Shown: positions 27,598 through 39,017 of the stretch, in pieces | How the letters are laid out: every line of letters begins with the position of its first letter | How positions within the stretch are numbered: the stretch's first letter is position 1 | Made by a program: the position numbers and the translations under genes | NCBI GenBank assembly: GCA_965660545.1 | Contig: CBFIAF010000002.1 | Location: 14,335 to 78,334, forward strand | Direction of reading: 5' to 3' | DNA from: Alphaproteobacteria bacterium | GTDB lineage: Bacteria > Pseudomonadota > Alphaproteobacteria > Bin95 | DNA length: 64,000 nt | Notes under the pieces: model-generated | The model's database searches: none | Told to the model about the DNA's origin: nothing | Seen by the model: only the letters and a program-made list of their open reading frames with translations

Positions 27598-28635
27598 AAG
27601 CTCATAGATTTTGACTTCAATCTGCCCGACGGCCTGATCGCCCAAACGCCTGCCCGTCCCCGCGACGCAGCGCGCATGTTGGCGGTAACCCCAGACGCGC
27701 TTTTCGACAAAGGCGTGATGGATTTACCGGGCCTGCTCCAGCCTGGCGATCTGATAGTTGTGAATAACACGCGGGTCATTCCAGCGCGCCTTCGGGGGCT
27801 GCGTGGCCAAATGCGTGTTGATGCAACACTGCACAAGGCTGTCGACGCATCCCACTGGCTAGCCTTCGCGCGCCCCGGGCGTCGATTGCGTGTTGGCGAC
27901 CGCGTTACGTTCGCAACAGGGTTCGAGTGTACCGTCGAGGAAAAGCACGATGGTGGGGAGTTTCTGTTGGCATTTGACGCCAGCGGGTCTGAGTTGATTG
28001 AGGCTCTGCACCGTCACGGCGCGCCGCCATTGCCCCCTTACGTAAAACGCCCAGATGGTGCGTTGGATGAGGATGTGGCAGATTACCAAAGTCCTTTTGC
28101 TGCGCGCGACGGTGCAGTGGCTGCCCCTACCGCATCCCTACATTTCACGGATAGACTGCTAAAAGCGATCGCAGACCGCGGCGCCAAACAGGCGATTGTA
28201 ACTTTGCATGTGGGTGCCGGCACGTTCCTGCCAGTAAAAACGGATAATATTGCGGAACACCAGATGCATAGCGAATGGGGCGAAGTTTCAAACGCCGTTG
28301 TCAAAGCCGTCGCTGAAACAAAGGACAAGGGCGGACGGGTTGTTCCGATAGGCACAACAGCATTGCGGATATTGGAAGCCGCAAGCCAATCCGGCGCACT
28401 AAAGCCCTTCCAAGGCGATACGGATATATTCATCACACCCGGTTATTCATTCCGCACTGTCGATGCGCTGATGACAAACTTTCATTTACCGAAATCGACG
28501 CTATTCATGCTGGTCTCCGCAATGATGGGCCGCGAAACCATGCTCAGCGCCTATGCCCACGCCATCTACGAGCATTATCGCTTTTTCTCATATGGGGATG
28601 CCAGCTTGCTCCTCCCCGGAGGCCTCGCGCCATGA
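27598..28635 (+). CDS. queA: tRNA preQ1(34) S-adenosylmethionine ribosyltransferase-isomerase
   Basis: The GTG-start N-terminus [20 protein letters not shown] is the canonical QueA start. Confidence 0.9.
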
Positions 28636-29732
28636 CCATTAAATTCGATCTTCTGGCCGAGGACGGTGCCGCTCGCCGTGGCCGCATTACGACCGCCCAC
28701 GGGACCATTGAGACCCCAGCGTTCATGCCCGTTGGCACTGCCGGTACGGTTAAAGCCATGCGGCCAGAAGAGGTTGAGGCAGCGGGCGCTGAGATCATCC
28801 TCGGCAACACTTACCATCTGATGCTGCGGCCTGGTGCCGAGCGGGTCAACCGCCTTGGGGGACTGCATAACTTCATGCGCTGGCCAGGGCCAATCCTGAC
28901 CGATTCAGGGGGGTTTCAGGTGATGTCGCTTTCTGAACTTCGCAAGATTACAGAGGACGGTGTCCGTTTTCGCAGCCACATAAATGGTTCCTATATCGAT
29001 CTGACCCCAGAGCGGTCGATCCAGATCCAAAACCTATTGGACGCCACCATCACAATGGCGTTTGATGAATGCACCCCCTTTCCGGCGGAACATGCCGTTG
29101 CGGCAAAGTCCATGCAGCTCTCGATGCGTTGGGCCAAGCGCAGCAGCTATGCATTTGAAGCCAGGCCTGGATATGGCCTGTTCGGCATCGTCCAAGGCGG
29201 GGTTTATGAGGATTTGCGGGTTGAAAGCGCTGGCATGCTGCAAGACATAGGCTTTGATGGTTATGCCGTTGGGGGGCTTGCGGTCGGCGAAGGCCAGGAG
29301 CAAATGTTCGAAACCTTGCAGGCCACCACGCCACATCTGGCCCGTGAGCGCCCGCGATACTTGATGGGAGTCGGCAAACCGGCGGATATCATCGGTGCGG
29401 TTGCGCGCGGTGTGGACATGTTTGATTGCGTTCTGCCGACGCGGTCTGGCCGTACCGGCCAGGCCTGGACATGGGATGGACCGCTCAACCTTCGCAATGC
29501 CAAACATCGGGATGACGCAAACACGCCGCTAGACCCTAATTGCGTATGCCCTGTATGCCAAAAATATGACCGAGCTTACCTCCACCATCTGACTAAAGCG
29601 CAAGAGGTACTCGGCCTCATGCTACTAACCCAGCACAATCTTTGGCATTATCAAGATCTAATGCGACGAACGCGTGCTGCGATTGAAGCAGGTACATTTA
29701 GCACATTTTTAGCGAAATACAGCATTAAATAA
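28632..29732 (+). CDS. tgt: Queuine tRNA-ribosyltransferase (tRNA-guanine transglycosylase)
   Basis: It has the Tgt N-terminus …[22 protein letters not shown] and the zinc-site CxCxxC…H. It overlaps queA by 4 nt. Confidence 0.9.
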
Positions 29733-30096
29733 AATATCTAACTAAAATAATTATAAAAAAATTCTATATTATACAATAATAAAACTACAATAAAATTAAT
29801 ATTTTTTGCTTTTTATACGATAAAATTTTGGTAAATTATAATATATAAAAATTATTTTTAGTTAACTCCTTGTTAAATTGATTTCTACATTATTTGAGCA
29901 TACTATGCACCGCGAAAACATTTTTATGCGGCAGCGTGATGAAGCTTCAGGCAACACTCAGGCCCTCTCACGAAGCAAAGGAATTCACACTATGGGTTTG
30001 ACCGTAAGGTGTACATGAGCTTTACCAGCCGAAAATTCGCATTAGCGTCGCGAACTGAGCGCTGATATGATTCTCTGACGTCACGGCAGTGTAGTC

Positions 30097-31075
30097 ATGA
30101 AGCCCAACAGTCTTTTCAGACTTTCGGATCATCTGGCCATACTTAGCAAGCACGGCGATCCGCTTGAGGTTCTCCATGTGACGTCGGACTTCAAGTGTTT
30201 CTGGGACTGGCTGGTTGAGGGACTCGGTTACGGGGACGGCGCCAAGGACGGCCGGCCGCCGTTCGATCCGGTGTCTATGTTCAAGGCGCTGATCCTGCAG
30301 GCGCAGCGCAATCTATCGGACGTGCGGATGGAGTTCATGATCCGGGGCCGTTTGTCGTGGATGCACTTCCTGGGCTTCGACTGGCAATTGAGGAAGAAAG
30401 GCTACATCCCCCCTCTCAGCGATTGCGCGCAATCGCCTGCCGGGCAACGCATGTCCGGCCAGAGCGTGGGCGCCTCCTTGGTTCCAGCCCCGAAGCAGCG
30501 GAACACGGAGGATGAGAAGGCGGCCATCAAGGCGGCTCAGAAGGACACAAATGCCCGCTGGACATTGAAGATCAGCGGCAAGGTCCGCTACCGCCTTGAC
30601 GGAACGGCGTTGCCGATGATCGCGATCCCGACCTTCGGCTACAAATCGCACATTGCGATCGACCGTCGATACAGCTTTATCCGCAGCTTCGCCGTGACAT
30701 CGGCAGCCCACGGCGATGGCAAAGTGCTGCGCCGAGTCGTGACCACGGATAATACCAGCGGCAATGTATGGGCGGACAGCGCCTATCGCTCCAAGGCGAA
30801 TGAGGCATGGTTCTCGAGCTAGGTGCCGCGCAGCCAGATCCATCGTCGCAAGCTTAAAGGCAGGCCGATGTCATCGGCCACATCTCGTGCCAATGGCAAG
30901 AAGTCGAGTATCCGTGCCGGTGTGGAGCATGTCTTCGCCCATTAGAAGAACCACTATGGGCTGTTCATTCGCACGATCGGCCTGACGCGGGCCGAGGCGA
31001 AACTGACTCTCGCCAATCTCGCCCATAATATGGACCGGCTCGTGTTCCATGAACGGCGCGTCGCCACAGGATAAA
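30097..31075 (+). mobile_element. IS5-family insertion sequence remnant; the transposase ORF is disrupted by in-frame stops and an internal deletion
   Basis: The N-terminal part (30097..30822) matches IS5/IS4-type DDE transposases (…APKQRNTEDEKAAIKA…). The C-terminal motifs KGRPMSS…VEHVFAH*KNHYGLFIRTIGLTRAEAKLTLANLAHNMDRL continue in another frame, with TAG stops at about 30820 and about 30942. The GC content is about 60%, against the surrounding AT-rich DNA. Confidence 0.7.
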
Positions 31076-32004
31076 TCCGCCTGACTTTAGAGAAATCCGC
31101 CATTCTACGGCGGAAATACCCGATCAGCACATAATAGATGCGTCCTCACCCGCGCAGCTTTGCCTTATTGGCTTGTACCGCAATCAGAATAAACGGTTGA
31201 TACAGGTGTCCTGCTGGTATCTTTGAAACACCAGTCGCATTCACCATTGTTTGTGCTACATTTGGCACGCCGTGCATGGCATTCTGGACATTATTTGGCG
31301 CAGCATTTGCCCGCGTTTTCCAGAATCCGAAGGCCCGCCGCATTATCGGCTGTACGCTGCCGATCATCCTTCTCGCAACAATCCCATTCATGTTCCGCTG
31401 AATAGAAAAAGGCCGGGCCTCCTTGGTGGAGGCGCGGCCCATCGATAGCCGTAAAGATGAAAGTGTCGTTTGGCGCTTACAGAACTGGAATATAAAATAA
31501 ATGAATATCTAACAGTATGTTAATGCTATTCATAAAATAACGTATTTTATACGTACTTTTAAGTTTTATCGAGAAAAATCATAAAACCAACCTGCAATCT
31601 AGTATTTATACATATTCTTTTCATGCGCATCAGGTTGTTTTCAAGCTCATTCAATCGATTAAATAGCCGATTGGGACCAGCATAACTTAGTGCGCTATGA
31701 CGAACGATCGCACGTATATCAGTTTCCGGTTCCTAGGTTCGGTCGCTTATTTGATCGGCTGTTTCTGAGAAGGGTGATACGTTCTGTCATTGCTATGAGC
31801 CAGGTGCCGCTCTTCTGGGATGTATTTCGGACTGGTAGGCGTTCAATCCGAGACAGAGCGCTCTGTGACTTCATACTCAGGGCTTCGATCACAATTCCTG
31901 CTTTGCCAGCAACCATCCGTCATTCAGTAACGCATGCTCCGAGACACCTATCGCGCTACCAAAAGTGTATTTCATTCATTTGCACTTTCTGCCAGACTCT
32001 TCGT

Positions 32005-33036
32005 ATGAAAAACCTAACAGCCACGATCTGCCTCGGCGTTGCCCTGCTTCTTGGAAGTAAGGGAATGGCTTGGAGCCAAGATTTTGAAAAGGGTCTAACC
32101 GCTGCTAAAAGTGGAGATTATTCAACTGCTCTGTGGGAATGGACGCCTCTTGCGAAACAGGGGTATTCCGATGCCCAATACAATCTGGGAGTGATGTACG
32201 AAAATGGGCAAGGTGTTCCAAAGAACTATGTGACTGCTGTAAAATGGTACAGACTTGCCGCCGAACAAGGGGTTGCCGATGCCCAGTTCAATCTGGGTAA
32301 TGCATACCGCCACGGACTAGGTGTTCCACAAAACGATAAGACTGCTGTGAAATGGTACAAACTTGCCGCCGAACAGGGGAATGCCACTGTCCAGTACATT
32401 CTGGGACAGATATACCGCCAAGGAAAAGGTGTTCCCCAGGATTATAAGACAGCAGTGAAGTGGTACACACTTGCTGCCGAACAGGGGGGTGCCAATGCCC
32501 AAGGAAATCTGGGTGTTATGTACAGCGCAGGACAAGGTGTTCCCGCGGACAATAAGACAGCAGTGAAGTTATTCAAACTTGCTGCCGAACAAAGGTACGC
32601 CGATTCCCAGTACAATCTGGGTGTGATGTACAGCAAAGGACAAGGTGTTCCCCAGGATTATAAGACAGCGGTGAAGTGGTATACACTTGCTGCCGAACAG
32701 GGGGATGCCTCTGCACAGTACAATCTTGGTGTGATGTGCGAAAATGGACAAGGCATTCCCCAAGATTATAAGACAGCGGTGAAGTGGTACACACTTGCTG
32801 CTAAACAGGGCGATGCTGATGCCCAGACCAATCTCGGTGTGATGTATGGAACGGGAAGAGGGGTCATGCAGAATTTTGTTTATGCCCATATGTGGGGAAA
32901 TCTTGGTGCCTCTAATGGGAGTGAGAATGGAGGTAAGTTGCGAGAAATCGCCGCTAAAAAAATAACCCCGTCCCAACTTGAAACCGCTCAGAAACTTGCC
33001 CTTGAATGTGTCCGTAAGAAGTATTTAGGGTGTTGA
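32005..33036 (+). CDS. Secreted Sel1-like repeat (SLR/TPR-like) protein, about 7 repeats (family paralog A)
   Basis: It has the signal peptide MKNLTATICLGVALLLGSKGMAWS. It carries tandem 36-aa units AQYNLGVMYxxGQGVPQDYKTAVKWYxLAAEQG. It has a cysteine-containing C-terminal tail …ECVRKKYLGC. The start is chosen at ATG 32005; the 31690 ORF start is an upstream read-through. Confidence 0.8.
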   Translation: MKNLTATICLGVALLLGSKGMAWSQDFEKGLTAAKSGDYSTALWEWTPLAKQGYSDAQYNLGVMYENGQGVPKNYVTAVKWYRLAAEQGVADAQFNLGNAYRHGLGVPQNDKTAVKWYKLAAEQGNATVQYILGQIYRQGKGVPQDYKTAVKWYTLAAEQGGANAQGNLGVMYSAGQGVPADNKTAVKLFKLAAEQRYADSQYNLGVMYSKGQGVPQDYKTAVKWYTLAAEQGDASAQYNLGVMCENGQGIPQDYKTAVKWYTLAAKQGDADAQTNLGVMYGTGRGVMQNFVYAHMWGNLGASNGSENGGKLREIAAKKITPSQLETAQKLALECVRKKYLGC

Positions 33037-33210
33037 GTAAAACCTAACTGAGTGCCCGATATGCAATCGCTCGTCCTATTCCCATCCGCTTCGCAGTTGC
33101 AGACGCACTTAAGTCACTAACGCCCAGCATTAATCCCCCCAATTTGCGAGATGCCCATAGCGCTCCCACAAGGGTATTTGCTCCAATCCCACTTTCTGCA
33201 AACTTTTTGC

Positions 33211-33315
33211 ATGAGAAATCTGACTGCCACCATCTGCCTCGCCGTTGCCCTGCTCCTTGGAAGTGCGAGGGTAGCTTGGAGTGCTGGTTTTCAAAGGGGA
33301 TATGCTGGATACCAG
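33211..33315 (+). pseudogene. Orphan 5' module of the Sel1 family (leader, signal peptide, about 35 codons), with no repeat body
   Basis: MRNLTATICLAVALLLGSARVAWSAGFQRGYAGY is near-identical to the paralog B start. The reading frame then runs into unrelated or antisense sequence. Confidence 0.5.
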
Positions 33316-33450
33316 AGGAGTTGCGTAATCACCACTTTTGTATGCGATTACACCCTTTCTAAACTCTGGCTCCAAGACCCTCCCGCACTTCCAAGAAGCA
33401 GGACAACGGCCAGGCAGGGTCTGGCGGTCAGTTTTTTAGACGGAGAGTCT
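33301..33450 (-). pseudogene. Second orphan 5' module of the Sel1 family in inverted orientation, start codon lost and frameshifted, abutting the + strand orphan head-to-head
   Basis: The reverse-strand translation KKLTARPCLAVVLLLGSAGGSWSQS, then (frameshift) EFRKGVIAYKSGDYATPL, parallels the paralog A start MKNLTATICLGVALLLGSKGMAWSQDFEKGLTAAKSGDYSTAL. Confidence 0.45.
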
Positions 33451-33549
33451 GACAGAGAATATTTAGAATGGGTAGAGAGAAAGGGGTGTGGGTAGAGTTA
33501 TGGGAAATAGGAAGGGCGCGCGTGTATCGGGCACTCGGTTATATTTTAC

Positions 33550-34149
33550 TCAACATCCTTTGTAGTTTTTGCGGGCACATTCACGGGCAAGTTTCTTTGC
33601 GGTAGAGATTTCGGCGGGGGTCATCTTTTTCCCAAAATCATCCATCAAATTCGCACCCAACTTATTTCCATTGGTCGCAGCGATGCTTCCCCACATGTGA
33701 GCATATATATACCCTTTTAGCACTCCCCGTCCCAATGCGTACATCAAACCTAGACCAAACTGGGCATCGGCATCACCTTGTTCGGCGGCAAGTTTGTACC
33801 ACTTCACCGCAGTCTTATAATCCTGCGGAACACCTTGCCCGTTGGCGTACATCACACCCAGATTGTACTGGGCAAAGGCATTCCCCTGTTCGGCAGCAAG
33901 TTTGTACCATTTCACCGCAGTCTTATAATTCTTGGGAACACCTTGTCCGTTGGCGTACATCAAACCTAGATTGTACTGGGCATCGGAATGCCTCTGTTCG
34001 GCAAGAGGTGTCCATTCACGCAAAGCAGTTGCGAAGTCACCGCTCTTGTATCCCGCATACCCCCTTTGAAAATCAGCACTCCAAGCTACCCCCGCACCTC
34101 CAAGAAGCAGGGTAACGGCGATACAGATGGTAGCGGTCAAGTTTCTCAT
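33550..34149 (-). CDS. Secreted Sel1-like repeat protein, about 3 repeats (family paralog B)
   Basis: It has the signal peptide MRNLTATICIAVTLLLGGAGVAWS, Sel1 units AQYNLGLMYANGQGVPKNYKTAVKWYKLAAEQG, and the same C-terminal tail …ECARKNYKGC as paralog A. Confidence 0.8.
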   Translation of the reverse strand: MRNLTATICIAVTLLLGGAGVAWSADFQRGYAGYKSGDFATALREWTPLAEQRHSDAQYNLGLMYANGQGVPKNYKTAVKWYKLAAEQGNAFAQYNLGVMYANGQGVPQDYKTAVKWYKLAAEQGDADAQFGLGLMYALGRGVLKGYIYAHMWGSIAATNGNKLGANLMDDFGKKMTPAEISTAKKLARECARKNYKGC

Positions 34150-35361
34150 ACGGAAAGTTTCGCAGAAAGTGGAATTGGTGCAAATAGCCTTGTGGAAGCG
34201 CCATCGACAGGCAAGTGTATCTCGTAACGTAGGTGGGTCACATGCTGGGCGTCGGTGACTAAATCGTATCAGCAGCCCCCTAGAGGGCTTTGTCGCACAT
34301 TCTCATGGGGCTTTTTGTACTTCTAAGATTTTAACAGCGGGCATAAATTTATTGGTGGTAGCTTTGATCTAAACTCCTGAAATAATGTGATATCTTAATA
34401 CAATTCGAACAAAAAAATTTTGCTTTTATAAATAATTCCTGGTTATTATGATTATGTCGAATTGGTTTGTTTATTTATAACTACAATTTTTTCGGCGGCA
34501 ATTTAATATTCGATCGTATACAAAGTTATATTCTAAAGATATTCAAATACAATATACTGAGTAATTTTTAAAATATAGGCATATATTTATGTAAAAAAGC
34601 CATATTTAATACTGCAATGAAGTAAAATATGGTCCTTGTAAACAATGATAAAAATAATAAATTTTTACCAACACTCTCTGTTATAGCGCGAGTTGCCTCT
34701 TCTATATTTTGATTAATTTCAATTATTGATTTAAGAGACTCTTTCGTAAGTGCGCCTTGGAGGCAGCAGAAAGGCATTGAATGTCCCTCTTCCGGTTACC
34801 AAATTAATGATGTGATTTAATTGCAGGGGTTCTTTTTAGCAATTATGCAATTAAAATTGCGTTTCTCTGCGGACGGAGGCTATTCAAGCAGTGCTGGCGC
34901 ATTATCACCTCTCCAATGCGCCTCAACACTCCTCTGAAAGTTTAGCGATACGGCACCAGAGACAGCCCAATCTCCAAAGCTTTGAGTTACGTTTCATTCG
35001 TTTAACCTTCTTATATCACGACCTGATAATCGTAAGCCCAGCATCTAACGATTGACCAGACGCTTTATCTTCAGATTACTCGCAGGATCGCGCCTCGTTC
35101 AGCGGAGGAGGGCACGATGGTCGTCCTTGAACTTGTGAGCGTCTAACACCCGTTTCTCTATGGAAATATCAAAAATCATGGCGTTAGCGTAGAAATCGGT
35201 CAAAATGCTATGTAAGCGCCCGTGAAGCGGTGAGCTGCCAGTAAGCGCTCTCACCGCTCATTTGTAGCCCTGAGTGCAGCTTATCGGAGCTGTCTGTATT
35301 TTTCAGCAACGCATACCAAAGTCGTGACGGTTGACGAACTCTGATTCATCCTTTGAGTTAA

Positions 35362-35565
35362 CCCATTGAGCGCATCAGTATTTGGGCAAAAATACCAGAA
35401 AAACTTACTTTTCCACAACTTGAGTCCTTCCTATGGGAAAGCGCAGACATCTTTCGTGGAAATATGGATGCGTCAGAGTTCGAGGACTACATTTTTGGGA
35501 TGATGGTCCTGAAGCATCTTTCGGACCCGTTCGAGGAAGAGCGAGTAGTTAGTCTTAAATTATGA
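35362..35565 (+). pseudogene. hsdM: Relic N-terminus of a type I restriction-modification methyltransferase (HsdM), about 65 codons, with no start and a premature stop
   Basis: …TFPQLESFLWESADIFRGNMDASEFEDYIFGMMVLKHLSDPFEEER matches the conserved HsdM N-terminal domain (LWxxADxLRGxMDASEYKxYIxGLxFLKxLSDxFEE). A stop lies 5 codons upstream and a TGA follows after RVVSLKL. Confidence 0.65.
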
Positions 35566-35831
35566 CTGAGCAATTCCAGGAACTTTCGAATTTCGTAGAG
35601 GAAGAAATGCGCATGATGCTTTTGTATAAGTCAGTGATGCTTAAGGGACATGACCACCATCTGTAACCGATATCAGATGAACGAATGAGACCTAATGAGA
35701 CGTGCTATCGTGGAGTTCATCACTGACATCCAAAAGGACCCGAGTAATACCTCACGTCATATGTTTCTCTGAGGTCCCACTCGGACATTACATGCCTGAA
35801 AGACCCCGCAGCATGGTGTCTGAGCCATCTC

Positions 35832-36590
35832 CTATTTCATAAATTTTTTAAAGAACTCTATCGTTCGTTTATGAGAGTCTTTGGTGACAAAATCATTATA
35901 AATATATTTTCTATGGTTCTTTCGATCCCAAGCATGACCAACGCCAGTGTAAATATGAGTATTAATTGTTGCACCTCTGCTTTTTATTTCACTCCAGGCT
36001 TCCTGTGCAAAATTTAGACTTTGTATTTTATCAACATCACCATGCAACGCCAATATTGGATTGCTAGATTTGGAGAAATAATTCATAGGGTAGGGGTTGG
36101 TTATCTCTCTACCAAAATTTGCCTTCCAAACTCCATAGTGAGAAACACCGGCGCTCACTTTCGAACTACCCGTTAGATAACCAACCCAGAACCCCCCGTT
36201 GGAAAAACCTGTGGCAAAAATGTTTTCTTTCTCGACCTTAGGTTCATTGTGCATGAGACCAACAACTTCAGATAAATCGTTTTCGATGTCCTCCCTAAAC
36301 CGATCGAATGTGCTCATCCTCGACCGAGTGGTTATGCCATATTTAACAAAGAAATTTGGAGCATAAACAGCGAAACCATCATCTACATAGCGCTGGATAA
36401 GATGTCCTACTGTCTTAAATCCTCCGCTGGTATGAAGTGCTATTACCGCTGGGAATGGACCGGAACCATTAGGAAAGAATTTTTCATGGTAAATTGCTTC
36501 TGCTCGGACGCTGCTAGCAAAGAATAAATAAACTACCAAAGCCAAATAAAATTTAGTGCATATGTACATTTTTACATTCCTCTGAATCAA
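35832..36590 (-). CDS. Secreted alpha/beta hydrolase, dienelactone-hydrolase-like
   Basis: It has an N-terminal signal peptide, the nucleophile elbow GFSNGG, an acid residue in LHGDVD, and a histidine in GVGHAW. The gene has very low GC relative to the genome. Confidence 0.65.
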   Translation of the reverse strand: MIQRNVKMYICTKFYLALVVYLFFASSVRAEAIYHEKFFPNGSGPFPAVIALHTSGGFKTVGHLIQRYVDDGFAVYAPNFFVKYGITTRSRMSTFDRFREDIENDLSEVVGLMHNEPKVEKENIFATGFSNGGFWVGYLTGSSKVSAGVSHYGVWKANFGREITNPYPMNYFSKSSNPILALHGDVDKIQSLNFAQEAWSEIKSRGATINTHIYTGVGHAWDRKNHRKYIYNDFVTKDSHKRTIEFFKKFMK

Positions 36591-36592
36591 AA

Positions 36593-36672
36593 TTGCTTTT
36601 ACCTCAACTTACTCCGCACTTCCAAAAAACAGTGCAACTGCAAAGCATGTGGTGGCAGTCAAGTTTATCATA
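36593..36672 (-). pseudogene. Third orphan Sel1-family leader/signal-peptide start (MINLTATTCFAVALFFGSAE*), sitting directly upstream of the hydrolase gene
   Basis: The reverse-strand ATG at 36672 is followed by a 19-codon SP-like ORF. The roughly 135 bp upstream (36655-36790) is about 80% identical to the region upstream of paralog B (34134-34270). Confidence 0.5.
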
Positions 36673-36859
36673 CGGAAAGTCTGGTAGACCGTGGGAATGC
36701 AGAAAATACCCTTGTGAAAGCGCCATCGGCGGGCAAGGGCATCTCGCAGCGTGGGCGAGTCAATGCTGGGCGTCAGTGACTAAAGTGCGTCTGCGATTGC
36801 GAAGGAAATGGGGATAGGCAGAGCGAGCGTGTATCTGGCATTAGGGTGGTAGAGGTCAG

Positions 36860-37688
36860 TCGAGATTTTGGAAGATAGCCTTCTTGGTCCGCATCTCTTC
36901 AATCTGAGCAGTCGTCATCCAGCAAGATAAATAATAGGTTCCATCAGATATCATCTTCCCAAGAGCAGTCTTGGAGATTGATGCTCTATTGGATTTGCGA
37001 GAAGTGATGTTTTTACTCTCCAAAATGCTTCTTACCACACTCGTCTGATGCCAAAGTTGGTATTCTCCGGTAGTGAGCCGAATTCCTCGAGTGTCTTTGT
37101 TATGTGCCCTTCATCCGTCGCAACACGAAGAAACTCATTGATCAGGGATGCTTAAGCTCGAAGCGTTGCAAAGCAGGGGTCTACAACAATGTTACGGGAT
37201 GCTGTGCCTTTTGCCCCAATACGCTTCTCGTTCACCTCTATGCGCTTTTTGCGCTTGAGGTCTTTCCAGTAGTTCAGGCGATAATCCTAGTAGCCATCGC
37301 AGAAGGGCTTTGTGAGATTGCCGAGAACCTTCTTTCCCATGAACTCTGAGACGTAGCGTTCATAGACACTGCGCTTCCATTCGAGGCGTTTCTCAGTGAC
37401 GTGATGCTGTTTACGATCAAGCCAGTCATGGAAGAACTTATCGACTGTGACCTCTGTCAGAGAGAAGCCACCCTTATGTTTCACTAAGAGATCGACATAA
37501 GCAGCTTGCGCTTTGAGGATTACCTCGCTGGCATCTGATGTGCCGCAGCTTCGTCGTATGTAACCGGCAATGCCTTCGACCTTTGCTCGGAAAAAGAACC
37601 TATCGCTATCTAGGTCGTTACGCCGAAAGATAATCAGCCTGCTGCCGTGAAGAGGGCTCTTTTGGCGGTCTTTATAAGCCTCAGGCAT
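36860..37688 (-). pseudogene. Relic of a P4-type tyrosine integrase; an N-terminal arm-binding/SAM-like region of about 133 aa is intact (37287..37688), and the remainder is interrupted by stops
   Basis: The N-terminus has the DUF4102-like pattern (…GSRLIIFRRNDLDSDRFFFRAKVEG…) and the core-binding-like pattern (…FFHDWLDRKQHHVTEKRLEWKRSVYERYVSEFMGKKVLGNLTKP). A TAG after …CDGY is followed by unrelated frames, and no R..HxxR..Y catalytic box was found. Confidence 0.4.
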
Positions 37689-37804
37689 GACGTCCGTGCT
37701 TTTTTGAGAACTGCTGGTCTGAAACGAGAACTGGTAACGGAACGTGCTTGATTCGTGCCTTTCTCATCAACCCAGTAAAGCAGGAATCGCAGAGTTCTGC
37801 GAGT

Positions 37805-37887: not shown

Positions 37888-38391
37888 CTAGCGCTTCGAG
37901 AACTGAAAGCTACGACGGGCTTTAGCCCGACCATACTTCTTACGCTCTACCATGCGGCTATCACGTGTAACGAAACCTGCAGCTTTCAGCGCAGGGCGGA
38001 GGCCCGGCTCAAAAGCCATCAGCGCGCGTGTCAGGCCATGGCGCACTGCGCCAGCTTGGCCAGACAATCCACCGCCTTTAACGGTGCATATCAGGTCATA
38101 CTGATTGAGGCGGTTCGCAACATCGAACGGGGACAGTGCGAGCATCTGCAAGTTGGCCCGGGAGAAATATTCGGTCACGGTCTTGCCGTTTACCGTCATC
38201 CTGCCGGAACCAGGCTTGATCCAAACGCGTGCGACTGATTCTTTACGACGACCTGTGCCATAGGAACGGCCATGCTCGTCGATCTTCGGATCGGGCAGAG
38301 CATCGCTGGACATTTCAGCACCGCCGCCTTGGGCACCATCTTCACCGAGCGCGTCTTTCAAGTCCGCGAGAGTGCGTGTTTCATCAGCCAT
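37888..38391 (-). CDS. rpsI: 30S ribosomal protein S9
   Basis: The C-terminus …[19 protein letters not shown]…[25 protein letters not shown] is the S9 signature. Confidence 0.95.
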
Positions 38392-38870
38392 TAGCTGGAC
38401 CTCCGAGCGCGGAACGCGTTCTTATTGTTCATAGATGCGACATCCAGGGGCTGAGGCTCCTGGGCTGCATGGGGATGATCTGGACCAGAATAAACGTGCA
38501 ACTTTTTGATCGATGCACGGGCAAGCTTGGTTTTAGGCAGCATCCGCTCGACAGCTTTTTCGATCACGCGCTCCGGGAAGCGGCCTTCGAGAATTTCATG
38601 TGCGGTGACACTCTTAATGCCACCTGGGTAGCCGGTGTGGCGATAATAGGTTTTGTCTTGACGCTTGTTGTTGCCTGTCATGGCAACTTTTTCAGCGTTA
38701 ATGACGACGATGTGATCGCCGCAATCAACATGCGGTGTGAATTGGGGCTTGTGCTTGCCGCGGAGGCGCATCGCGATGACGCTTGCGAGACGGCCTAGAA
38801 CAAGGCCTTCCGCATCAATCACGTTCCATGCACGCGCGACCTCGCCCGGTTTGGCTGAGACCGTTGACAT
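38391..38870 (-). CDS. rplM: 50S ribosomal protein L13
   Basis: [30 protein letters not shown]… is the canonical L13. The start is set at the internal ATG, and TAATG overlaps rpsI. Confidence 0.95.
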
Positions 38871-39017
38871 TGGGATGTTGCTCCAGTGGAAATTCCGTTG
38901 AACCGGACGCAATGCAAGAGCCCGGCCGAGGCCAGGGTATACCGGCGTCTTGTATGCAATGTCAACGCAAAAAATTCCGCGTTTTCCGTCATTTATGTAT
39001 GGGGTATTATAATACCG

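Follow-up and report, generated by a model that had tools for sequence, protein, structure and literature searches.

The window, which is the whole 64-kb stretch of DNA analyzed here, contains a genomic island at ~29.8-37.7 kb, whose GC content is 0.42-0.53 against ~0.55 elsewhere. The island is bounded by tgt (28632-29732) and rpsI/rplM (37888-38912), and the genes around it are tgt, queA, ggt, rpsI, rplM, a thioesterase gene and similar ones. No tRNA or tmRNA integration target was found. Two intact genes for secreted Sel1-repeat proteins, designated A and B, lie in the island in opposite orientations. Between them, two truncated gene starts, F1 and F2, abut at a junction. The features of the locus, together with remnants found elsewhere in the island, are the following.

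30097-30822: remnant of an IS5-type transposase, not intact
32005..33036, plus strand: gene A, intact, encoding a secreted Sel1-repeat protein of 343 aa with a signal peptide and seven Sel1 repeats
33037..33108, plus strand: 3' family flank of gene A, the first 49 nt of which are an inverted copy of the gene-B 3' flank
33109..33210, plus strand: F1 leader, a complete copy of the ~100-nt conserved upstream leader of family members
33211..33312, plus strand: F1 stub, ATG and 34 codons of a gene-B-type paralogue, cut at the junction
33216-33435, no strand: imperfect palindrome with arms at 33216-33298 and 33353-33435 and a 54-nt spacer that contains the junction 33312/33313
33313..33439, minus strand: F2 stub, remnant of codons 1-42, with the start codon lost (CTA), a 1-nt deletion and a frameshift
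33440..33549, minus strand: shortened intergenic region between B and F2, consisting of the B 3' flank (33500-33549) and a residual stretch from upstream of F2
33550..34149, minus strand: gene B, intact, encoding a secreted Sel1-repeat protein of 199 aa with three Sel1 repeats
34150..34264, minus strand: gene-B leader, homologous to the F1 and F3 leaders
36609..36671, minus strand: F3 orphan head, 20 codons and then a stop, with leader and 3' flank at 36672-36840
37287-37688, minus strand: integrase fragment of 133 aa, corresponding to the N-terminus of a tyrosine integrase of 476 aa (92% identity to L090)

Both genes match the Pfam Sel1 profile (PF08238, cut-off 30.7), gene A with seven repeats (E = 2e-84, 275 bits) and gene B with three (E = 3e-34, 117 bits). 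Compared with L086, a related metagenome contig, the coding sequences of A and B are each 4.8% diverged. The pN and pS values are 0.035 and 0.095 for gene A, whose orthologue in L086 is intact, and 0.032 and 0.107 for gene B. Gene B orthologues show 95% identity in L086 and 92% in another contig, L089. One NCBI protein in the public collection (P0002) is 100% identical to gene B, and the 90% cluster of gene B was also found. Among GTDB representatives, a set that does not include the source species, the best relatives of gene B show 61-68% amino-acid identity. Exact-protein look-ups returned no record for genes A and B, the hydrolase encoded beside F3, both junction-spanning ORFs, or P0002.

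The 3' flanks of the two genes are related to each other. The sequence 33037-33085 downstream of gene A is an inverted copy of 33500-33549 downstream of gene B, and an inverted repeat with 75% identity was observed between 32956-33083 and 33503-33630. The same 3' flank follows Sel1 genes in L013, L025, L098, L104, and L118. Sel1 genes with both the leader and the 3' flank are seen in many genomic contexts at 70-80% DNA identity, in MAGs assigned to different phyla. The conserved intergenic region shows no significant structure (z = -1.5). An integron cassette (attC) reading of the flanks was considered and rejected: ACCTAAC is present, no complementary GTTAGGT was seen by eye within the flank, and the fold score is the one just given.

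F1 is related to gene B. The sequence 33211-33312 on the plus strand translates as MRNLTATICLAVALLLGSARVAWSAGFQRGYAGY, a signal peptide followed by ..FQRGYAGY, and the motif VAWSA.FQRGYAGY is common to F1 and gene B. By blastn, 33109-33317 is 79% identical to the upstream region and 5' coding end of gene B (34263-34043), and the coding heads of F1 and gene B are 87% identical over the first 101 nt. F2 is of another type. The sequence 33313-33372 on the minus strand translates as EPEFRKGVIAYKSGDYATPL, and F2 retains its own ..AYKSGDYATPL and ends after codon 42. The region 33313-33456 matches the 5' end of gene A on the minus strand with 77% identity (blastn). F2 is 76-77% identical to the gene-A head, 78-81% to a head in L089 (designated Y, see below), and 71% to F1. 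The motif SWSQ is common to F2, gene A, and Y, and F2 is classified as an SWSQ-type head. For both stubs, homology to the paralogues ends abruptly at the junction, as in a pseudogene scar: that of F1 to gene B stops at ~33317, and that of F2 to A, B, and Y stops at 33313.

The order of the locus is A -> F1 -> junction <- F2 <- B, a nested imperfect palindrome. The mirror order was confirmed as A, 3' flank, stub on one side and stub, 3' flank, B on the other, with gene A as the outer left arm and gene B as the outer right arm. The inner arms detected by the repeat search (33216-33298 and 33353-33435) are 83 nt each and 75% complementary, with 54 nt between them. When the intergenic region was compared with the window by blastn, 33216-33435 aligned to its own reverse complement with E = 4e-19. 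As RNA, 33200-33450 (251 nt) folds into a single long hairpin. The folding energy is -133.1 kcal/mol for the plus strand, against a shuffle mean of -78 (z = -11.3), and -128.6 kcal/mol for the minus strand (z = -10.4). The DNA fold of the same 251-nt stretch gives z = -8.6. A strand-specific RNA structure was rejected, as both strands fold equally well. The 8-kb island contains 16 inverted-repeat pairs, of which F1/F2 is one, and all of them are explained by Sel1 paralogy. The arms resemble each other because every member of the family shares a conserved signal-peptide coding head.

A preliminary description of this DNA had reported an imperfect palindrome of ~250 bp and proposed to examine it for a hairpin. 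The palindrome is real, as the complementarity of the arms, the self-alignment, and the z score of about -11 all indicate, and the predicted hairpin is strong on both strands. Its two peptide readings were also right, and the junction 33312/33313 falls within the interval it gave, 33300-33315. It had called the arrangement head-to-head, and this must be reversed: the stubs are convergent, each starting on the outside and running to a cut 3' end at the junction. It had also placed one shared breakpoint between the YAGY and KSGDY codons. There are two different ones, after codon 34 in F1 and after codon 42 in F2, so that the breakpoints at the axis are offset by 8 codons.

To compare related lineages, contigs carrying members of the 90% protein cluster of gene B were aligned to the window. 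L086 (ENA) is collinear with window positions 31905-34864 at 89.7% over 2967 nt, and L088 (JGI) with 32108-34251 at 93.6%. L087 (JGI) covers 33285-34864 and is collinear as far as it reaches. These three contigs represent one lineage in the region, 5-19% diverged from the window. Three assemblies cover the junction at the same nucleotide, with substitutions on either side, and two of them (L086 and L088) span it fully. The window, L086, and L088 share one orientation across the junction, which amounts to only two lineages.

These comparisons bear on whether the junction could be a collapsed or chimeric repeat produced by assembly, a test named in the preliminary description. The island is repeat-rich, and every short-read contig from six Logan assemblies breaks off at the IS remnant (~30067). 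The exact 24-mer across the junction also has no match in JGI metagenomes, and this failed search is explained by substitutions in the JGI lineage. Against these points, the same junction nucleotide is found in L086 (ENA) and L088 (JGI), which come from different samples and differ from the window by 6 substitutions in F1 and 24 in F2. The same junction in independent, diverged assemblies excludes an artefact for practical purposes, leaving it a negligible chance, and places the junction before the split of the two lineages.

The contig L089 (ENA) shows an older arrangement. Downstream of its gene-B orthologue come, in tandem, the 3' flank typical of the family, a leader of full length, and head Y. 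Y has an intact ATG and begins MRNLTATICFAVALLLGSAGVSWSQDFQKGNAAYKSGDFATALREW..., and its homology to F2 runs to CTCTG, which is the junction. L089 thus has the tandem B -> Y without a mirror arm. Since the match of Y to F2 breaks off precisely at the junction, F2 is the remnant of the gene that followed B, namely the first 42 codons of an SWSQ-type paralogue formerly in tandem after gene B. The spacer between B and F2 in the window lacks ~125 nt, including the leader, that L089 has. Since L089 keeps the tandem B -> Y, with Y continuing past the breakpoint, the junction arose after the L089 lineage had split off. Judged from these alignments, the scar dates to after the split of L089 and before the split of the window and L086, and has a single origin in the common ancestor of the latter two. 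The survey of the family agrees with this. In 57 fetched loci with 79 heads, 20 tandem neighbor pairs were observed, and convergent heads were seen only in the orthologous L086 and L088. The restriction of convergence to these two contigs in a normally tandem family indicates a single historical event.

The two stubs have evolved differently since then. The divergence between the window and L086 is 8-10% in the intergenic pieces, 9.8% in the live heads of A and B, 15% in the gene-B leader, and 24% in the flank beyond gene B. F2 is 18.9% diverged (24/127). This is faster than synonymous sites (pS ~0.10 in A and B; p = 0.011) and indistinguishable from the fast unconstrained flank. Each lineage is disabled in its own way: in the window the ATG is gone and an indel and a frameshift are present, and in L086 the start is CTG and a TAG lies in frame. 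The derived changes, polarized by Y of L089, number 10 in each lineage, which led to the rejection of one-sided gene conversion as an explanation of the fast F2 rate. By its lesions and its rate, F2 is dead and decaying like unconstrained DNA.

F1 is truncated, but its divergence is only 5.9% (6/102; 4 non-synonymous and 2 synonymous changes). This rate is on a par with that of the live heads of A and B and far below those of F2 (p = 0.005) and the fast flank (p = 1e-5), although rate tests of this kind, like the covariation test below, rest on two lineages and have little power. The F1 leader is 92% identical to that of L086, and the leader and ATG are intact in both lineages. The ORF that reads through from F1 is 94 aa long in the window and 49 aa in L086, so that its end is not conserved, and the F1 junction ORF has no NCBIfam match. 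On these data F1 is not obviously dead. Its slow divergence suggests that the F1 promoter or leader may still be used, or that the similarity is kept by gene conversion. Recent gene conversion between F1 and B was rejected, as F1 of the window is more similar to F1 of L086 (94%) than to B (87%).

The pairing of the arms is being lost. Watson-Crick pairs form at 57 of the 83 arm positions in both lineages, at 5 in the window only, at 6 in L086 only, and at 15 in neither; a single change is compensatory. The pairing is eroding symmetrically in both lineages from an ancestral level of ~82%. The symmetric loss and the single compensatory change indicate that the pairing is not maintained.

This result weighs on the idea that the palindrome acts through RNA. 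The still-intact F1 leader and promoter would transcribe into F2, and the product, a hairpin RNA with a stem of ~100 bp, would serve as a bidirectional terminator or insulator between the convergent genes A and B; alternatively, its antisense-head part could regulate other genes of the family through their common head. The hairpin is indeed very stable on both strands, with a T6 run (33432-33437) after its 3' arm and a site at 33409-33425 that the search marked as terminator-like. Conservation of the F1 leader and stub matches that of live heads and significantly exceeds that of F2, and the arrangement has persisted through 5-19% divergence. However, complementarity is decreasing in both lineages with only one compensatory change, and F2, the would-be antisense part, evolves like unconstrained DNA. 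Among Rho-independent terminator patterns, the match at 33409-33425 carries a T run, and T6 comes after the large hairpin, but the region has about as many such matches as chance would give (3, with 2.8 expected). The leader yielded no promoter-like site. Rfam gave no match at E <= 1 on the island, nor at the gathering score on the whole window. Finally, tandem members of the family manage without such a hairpin. A functional RNA of this kind is therefore considered improbable.

The preliminary description had also raised the possibility of an invertible or recombinogenic element that controls the flanking Sel1 genes by phase variation. Inverted repeats between two genes for surface or secreted proteins in a variable island would suit such a switch, and so would a tyrosine-integrase remnant 4 kb away. 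L087, moreover, ends ~28 nt past the junction. The integrase is, however, a 133-aa N-terminal fragment without the catalytic domain, and no other recombinase is present within about 10 kb. The earlier statement that the window contains no recombinase was not strictly true, given this fragment and the IS5-type remnant, although neither is intact. An invertible switch is expected to have an intact site-specific recombinase nearby and short conserved inverted sites around a promoter or the 5' end of a gene. Neither was found here. The arms are 75% identical with a longest exact inverted match of 12 nt, and no promoter-like site is present in the 54-nt spacer or anywhere in 31600-34376. F2 has neither a start codon nor a leader. 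The repeats are decaying and the arms diverge between lineages, and all assemblies spanning the junction have the same orientation. A control element is thus unsupported, and its chance is very slight.

The palindrome is probably not a device but the scar of an old rearrangement, inherited and now eroding, in which two pseudogene stubs meet. The scar is an object of an ordinary type: pseudogene stubs in an island of paralogous repeat-protein genes, which happen to form a quasi-palindrome. It would have arisen by one illegitimate joining, in which a break in a gene X, after codon 34, was fused to a break in the gene Y, after codon 42. With B and Y of L089 as proxies for the lost sequence, the microhomology at the junction is 0-1 nt.

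Two routes to this joining may be envisaged. In the first, the convergent paralogues X and Y would have lost their 3' parts in a deletion that also took any sequence between them. By analogy with Escherichia coli, the loss may have been centered on a hairpin or cruciform formed by the convergent paralogues, stimulated by the palindrome and processed in the manner of SbcCD. The nearly symmetric breakpoints (codon 34 and codon 42) fit a deletion centered on such a structure. In the second, part of a tandem Sel1 array would have been inverted; the junction would mark one end of that segment, and its reciprocal would have been lost or would lie beyond the window. Neither a reciprocal inversion junction nor any other Sel1 DNA was found in the 64 kb, which mildly favors the deletion, and a large inversion is also compatible with it. 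If the locus is a scar, the deletion is the route with a slightly better than even chance, the inversion end is a good deal less likely, and the remainder falls to other histories of several steps. No collection searched contained the haplotype expected before the rearrangement (A -> full X, full Y <- B), and a scan of metagenome contigs with gene A returned many tandem Sel1 arrays but not this haplotype. The deletion is accordingly inferred.

The mirror geometry could also suggest a fold-back inverted duplication, in which template switching or a hairpin-capped break would have turned a single unit (a Sel1 gene, the intergenic region, and the 5' end of the gene after it) into both arms in one step. 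The nested mirror order of gene bodies, 3' flanks, and stubs is what such an event would leave, and the asymmetry of 8 codons resembles the spacer typical of fold-back junctions. A mirror with a short asymmetric spacer is also expected from deletion between convergent tandem pairs. After a fold-back, the two arms should be each other's closest relatives, and they are not. F1 is closest to B (87%), F2 is of the SWSQ type (76% to A and 78-81% to Y), and F1 and F2 are 71% identical. This pattern indicates that the arms derive from two paralogues that had already diverged. Genes A and B differ in their number of repeats (7 and 3), and their first 101 nt are only ~70% alike. B and its L089 orthologue match at 92%, and L089 has B -> Y without a mirror arm. 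A fold-back origin could be saved only by invoking several gene conversions from outside donors, and is very unlikely. Of the earlier proposal of a footprint of palindromic duplication or deletion, the rearrangement footprint is retained, and the palindromic (fold-back) duplication is contradicted by the identities of F1 to B and to F2. The scar is not assigned to the class of invertible switches or of fold-backs because defining features of each were looked for and are missing. Any present-day effect of the scar would be a by-product; for example, transcripts from gene A or from the F1 promoter may be terminated or insulated at the long hairpin with T6.

The proposed deletion has a counterpart in E. 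coli, where palindromes drive rearrangements (PMC3315005, PMC4245961) and SbcCD cuts off cruciform tips and cleaves the stem stepwise (PMC4787754). As in palindrome-stimulated deletion there (PMC4787754, PMC3315005, PMC4245961), inverted homologous stretches can extrude a hairpin, the center is lost, and the outer parts of the arms are joined nearly symmetrically, here at codons 34 and 42. The E. coli models use near-perfect palindromes, whereas the arms in this case were probably only 70-80% alike. In addition, the event here is deduced from sequence, and an inversion end gives the same local picture.

Orphan heads are not limited to F1 and F2. F3 translates as MINLTATTCFAVALFFGSAE followed by a stop, and lies directly upstream of a dienelactone-hydrolase gene (DLH Pfam match). 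The sequence 33053-33267 is 74% identical to 36840-36615 in the F3 region by blastn. The ~100-nt leader and the signal-peptide coding region show 70-92% nucleotide identity across genes with different bodies. The bodies that carry the shared head are Sel1 only, Sel1-MORN-trypsin, and an unrelated 161-aa protein, the last found in L166. In L169, the head is followed by a foreign membrane ORF and then by the tail. Head-only fragments recur, with truncation points at codons 20, 23, 34, 42, 52, and 88. The orphan heads F1, F2, and F3 might be footprints of a recurrent process in a horizontally spread family of marine secreted Sel1 proteins, in which the conserved head (leader and signal peptide) and the conserved tail with its 3' flank act as homology handles and bodies are swapped, replaced by foreign ORFs, or lost. 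This broader view is tentative and rather unlikely.

Gene families in which the promoter, leader, and signal-peptide head are conserved while the bodies vary are known from the vsa/vsp/vlp lipoproteins of Mycoplasma and the "upstream homology box" families of Borrelia. These systems switch expression by a dedicated recombinase, defined sites, or slipped-strand tracts. The Sel1 family resembles them in that its members share the leader and signal-peptide head and differ in their bodies. Unlike them, it shows no recombinase, no defined site, variable truncation points, and no observed orientation polymorphism. In Rhs/CDI polymorphic-toxin loci, orphan 3' ends of toxin and immunity genes occur without heads. 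As there, displaced family fragments pile up beside intact genes as footprints of past recombination. The present case is the mirror image: its orphans are 5' heads without bodies, and toxin or immunity functions play no part.

The result is mainly a negative one: a 250-bp quasi-palindrome that looks like a switch turns out, on comparison with two related lineages, to be an inherited and eroding scar. It provides a dated example of the breakdown of a paralogous repeat-protein array in a genomic island. The conserved signal-peptide head of the family suffices to produce long hairpin-forming inverted repeats when two members oppose each other. For annotation, 33109-33439 is best entered as a pair of pseudogene fragments, with no gene called for the 94-aa or the 114-aa read-through ORF. 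The more interesting material is peripheral to the palindrome: the leader and 3' flank that accompany the Sel1 genes through many contexts, the head on non-Sel1 cargo, and the recurring orphan heads. If the recurrent process outlined above is real, the conserved F1 head could be a live "landing pad" or promoter and not debris.

Head-only remnants are recurrent in the Sel1 family. The head, the conserved leader and signal-peptide-coding 5' end common to family members, is also found orphaned or truncated in other marine metagenome contigs, with truncation points varying from about codon 18 to codon 88.

Orphan or truncated heads in other contigs
L166, 1454-1609
L118, 2295-2357
L169, 1320-1397
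L089, 1584-1850

Two convergent orphan heads are observed only in the window lineage. Between the window and L086, an ENA contig of a related lineage with the same junction, the F1 stub (33211-33312) shows 5.9% divergence, against 18.9% for the adjoining F2 stub (33313-33439) (p = 0.005). The F1 value resembles that of live heads in the same comparison. Constraint may still act on F1 and its leader, or paralogues may be homogenising them. L087 (JGI 3300031774), another contig of that lineage, ends at window 33285, within the F1 arm and about 28 nt beyond the junction; either the assembly may have broken at the inverted repeat, or the end may hint at a heterogeneous population.

The window contains a third orphan Sel1 head, with a dienelactone-hydrolase gene directly downstream.

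36609-36840, F3, including leader and 3' flank; 20 codons, then a stop

The low-GC 1.7-kb segment bearing the hydrolase gene (34865-36584) is missing in the orthologous L086, where F3 borders directly on the region in which an intact GYD-domain gene lies (L086 4572-4898). In the window, the GYD-domain gene region is reduced to a 69-aa ORF (34568-34777). L086 also lacks a 441-nt stretch (31464-31904) immediately 5' of the leader of gene A, an intact secreted Sel1-repeat gene. Both sides of this stretch (31098-31463, and from 31905 on) are collinear with L086 at 90-92%; the stretch is an indel between the two. The predicted ORF 31690-33036, which lengthens gene A upstream from a GTG and crosses the stretch, is probably spurious.

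Sel1 paralogues share a ~100-nt leader and a ~50-70-nt 3' flank, 70-90% conserved. Copies are also present in L086, L089, L090, L099, and L127.

Leader and 3' flank copies in the window
33037-33210
34150-34264
36672-36840

The leader and 3' flank accompany Sel1 genes into unrelated contexts, beside an integrase, an IS, a resolvase, and a trypsin-like gene. Neither a significant fold (z = -1.5) nor a sigma-70-like match was seen in the leader. The same leader and signal-peptide head also precedes non-Sel1 cargo.

Heads on non-Sel1 cargo
L166, 895-1380, head with an unrelated 161-aa protein
L086, 2115-4232, head with a Sel1-MORN-trypsin protein
L169, 1320-1962, head cut at codon 23, followed by a foreign membrane ORF of 146 aa and by the 3'-terminal ~30 nt of a Sel1 gene along with its 3' flank

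The L169 arrangement is equivalent to exchanging the gene body while keeping head and tail.

A lower-GC genomic island occupies 29733-37700 of the window, bounded by tgt and rpsI/rplM. Mobile-element remnants are located at its edges.

30097-30822, possibly to ~30985, IS5-type transposase remnant, left edge
37287-37688, minus strand, truncated tyrosine integrase, right edge

The integrase remnant retains the 133 N-terminal residues of a protein that is 476 aa long and intact in L090. Six Logan metagenome contigs whose Tgt is identical all stop at window ~30067.

Sel1 genes from loci L007-L085 show 70-80% DNA identity to genes A and B of the window across hundreds of bases. Their MAG labels include Alpha- and Gammaproteobacteria, Thermodesulfobacteriota, Binatia, Planctomycetaceae, and others. 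Such identity to the window genes under varied labels suggests that the Sel1 family has spread horizontally, or that binning noise lies behind the labels.
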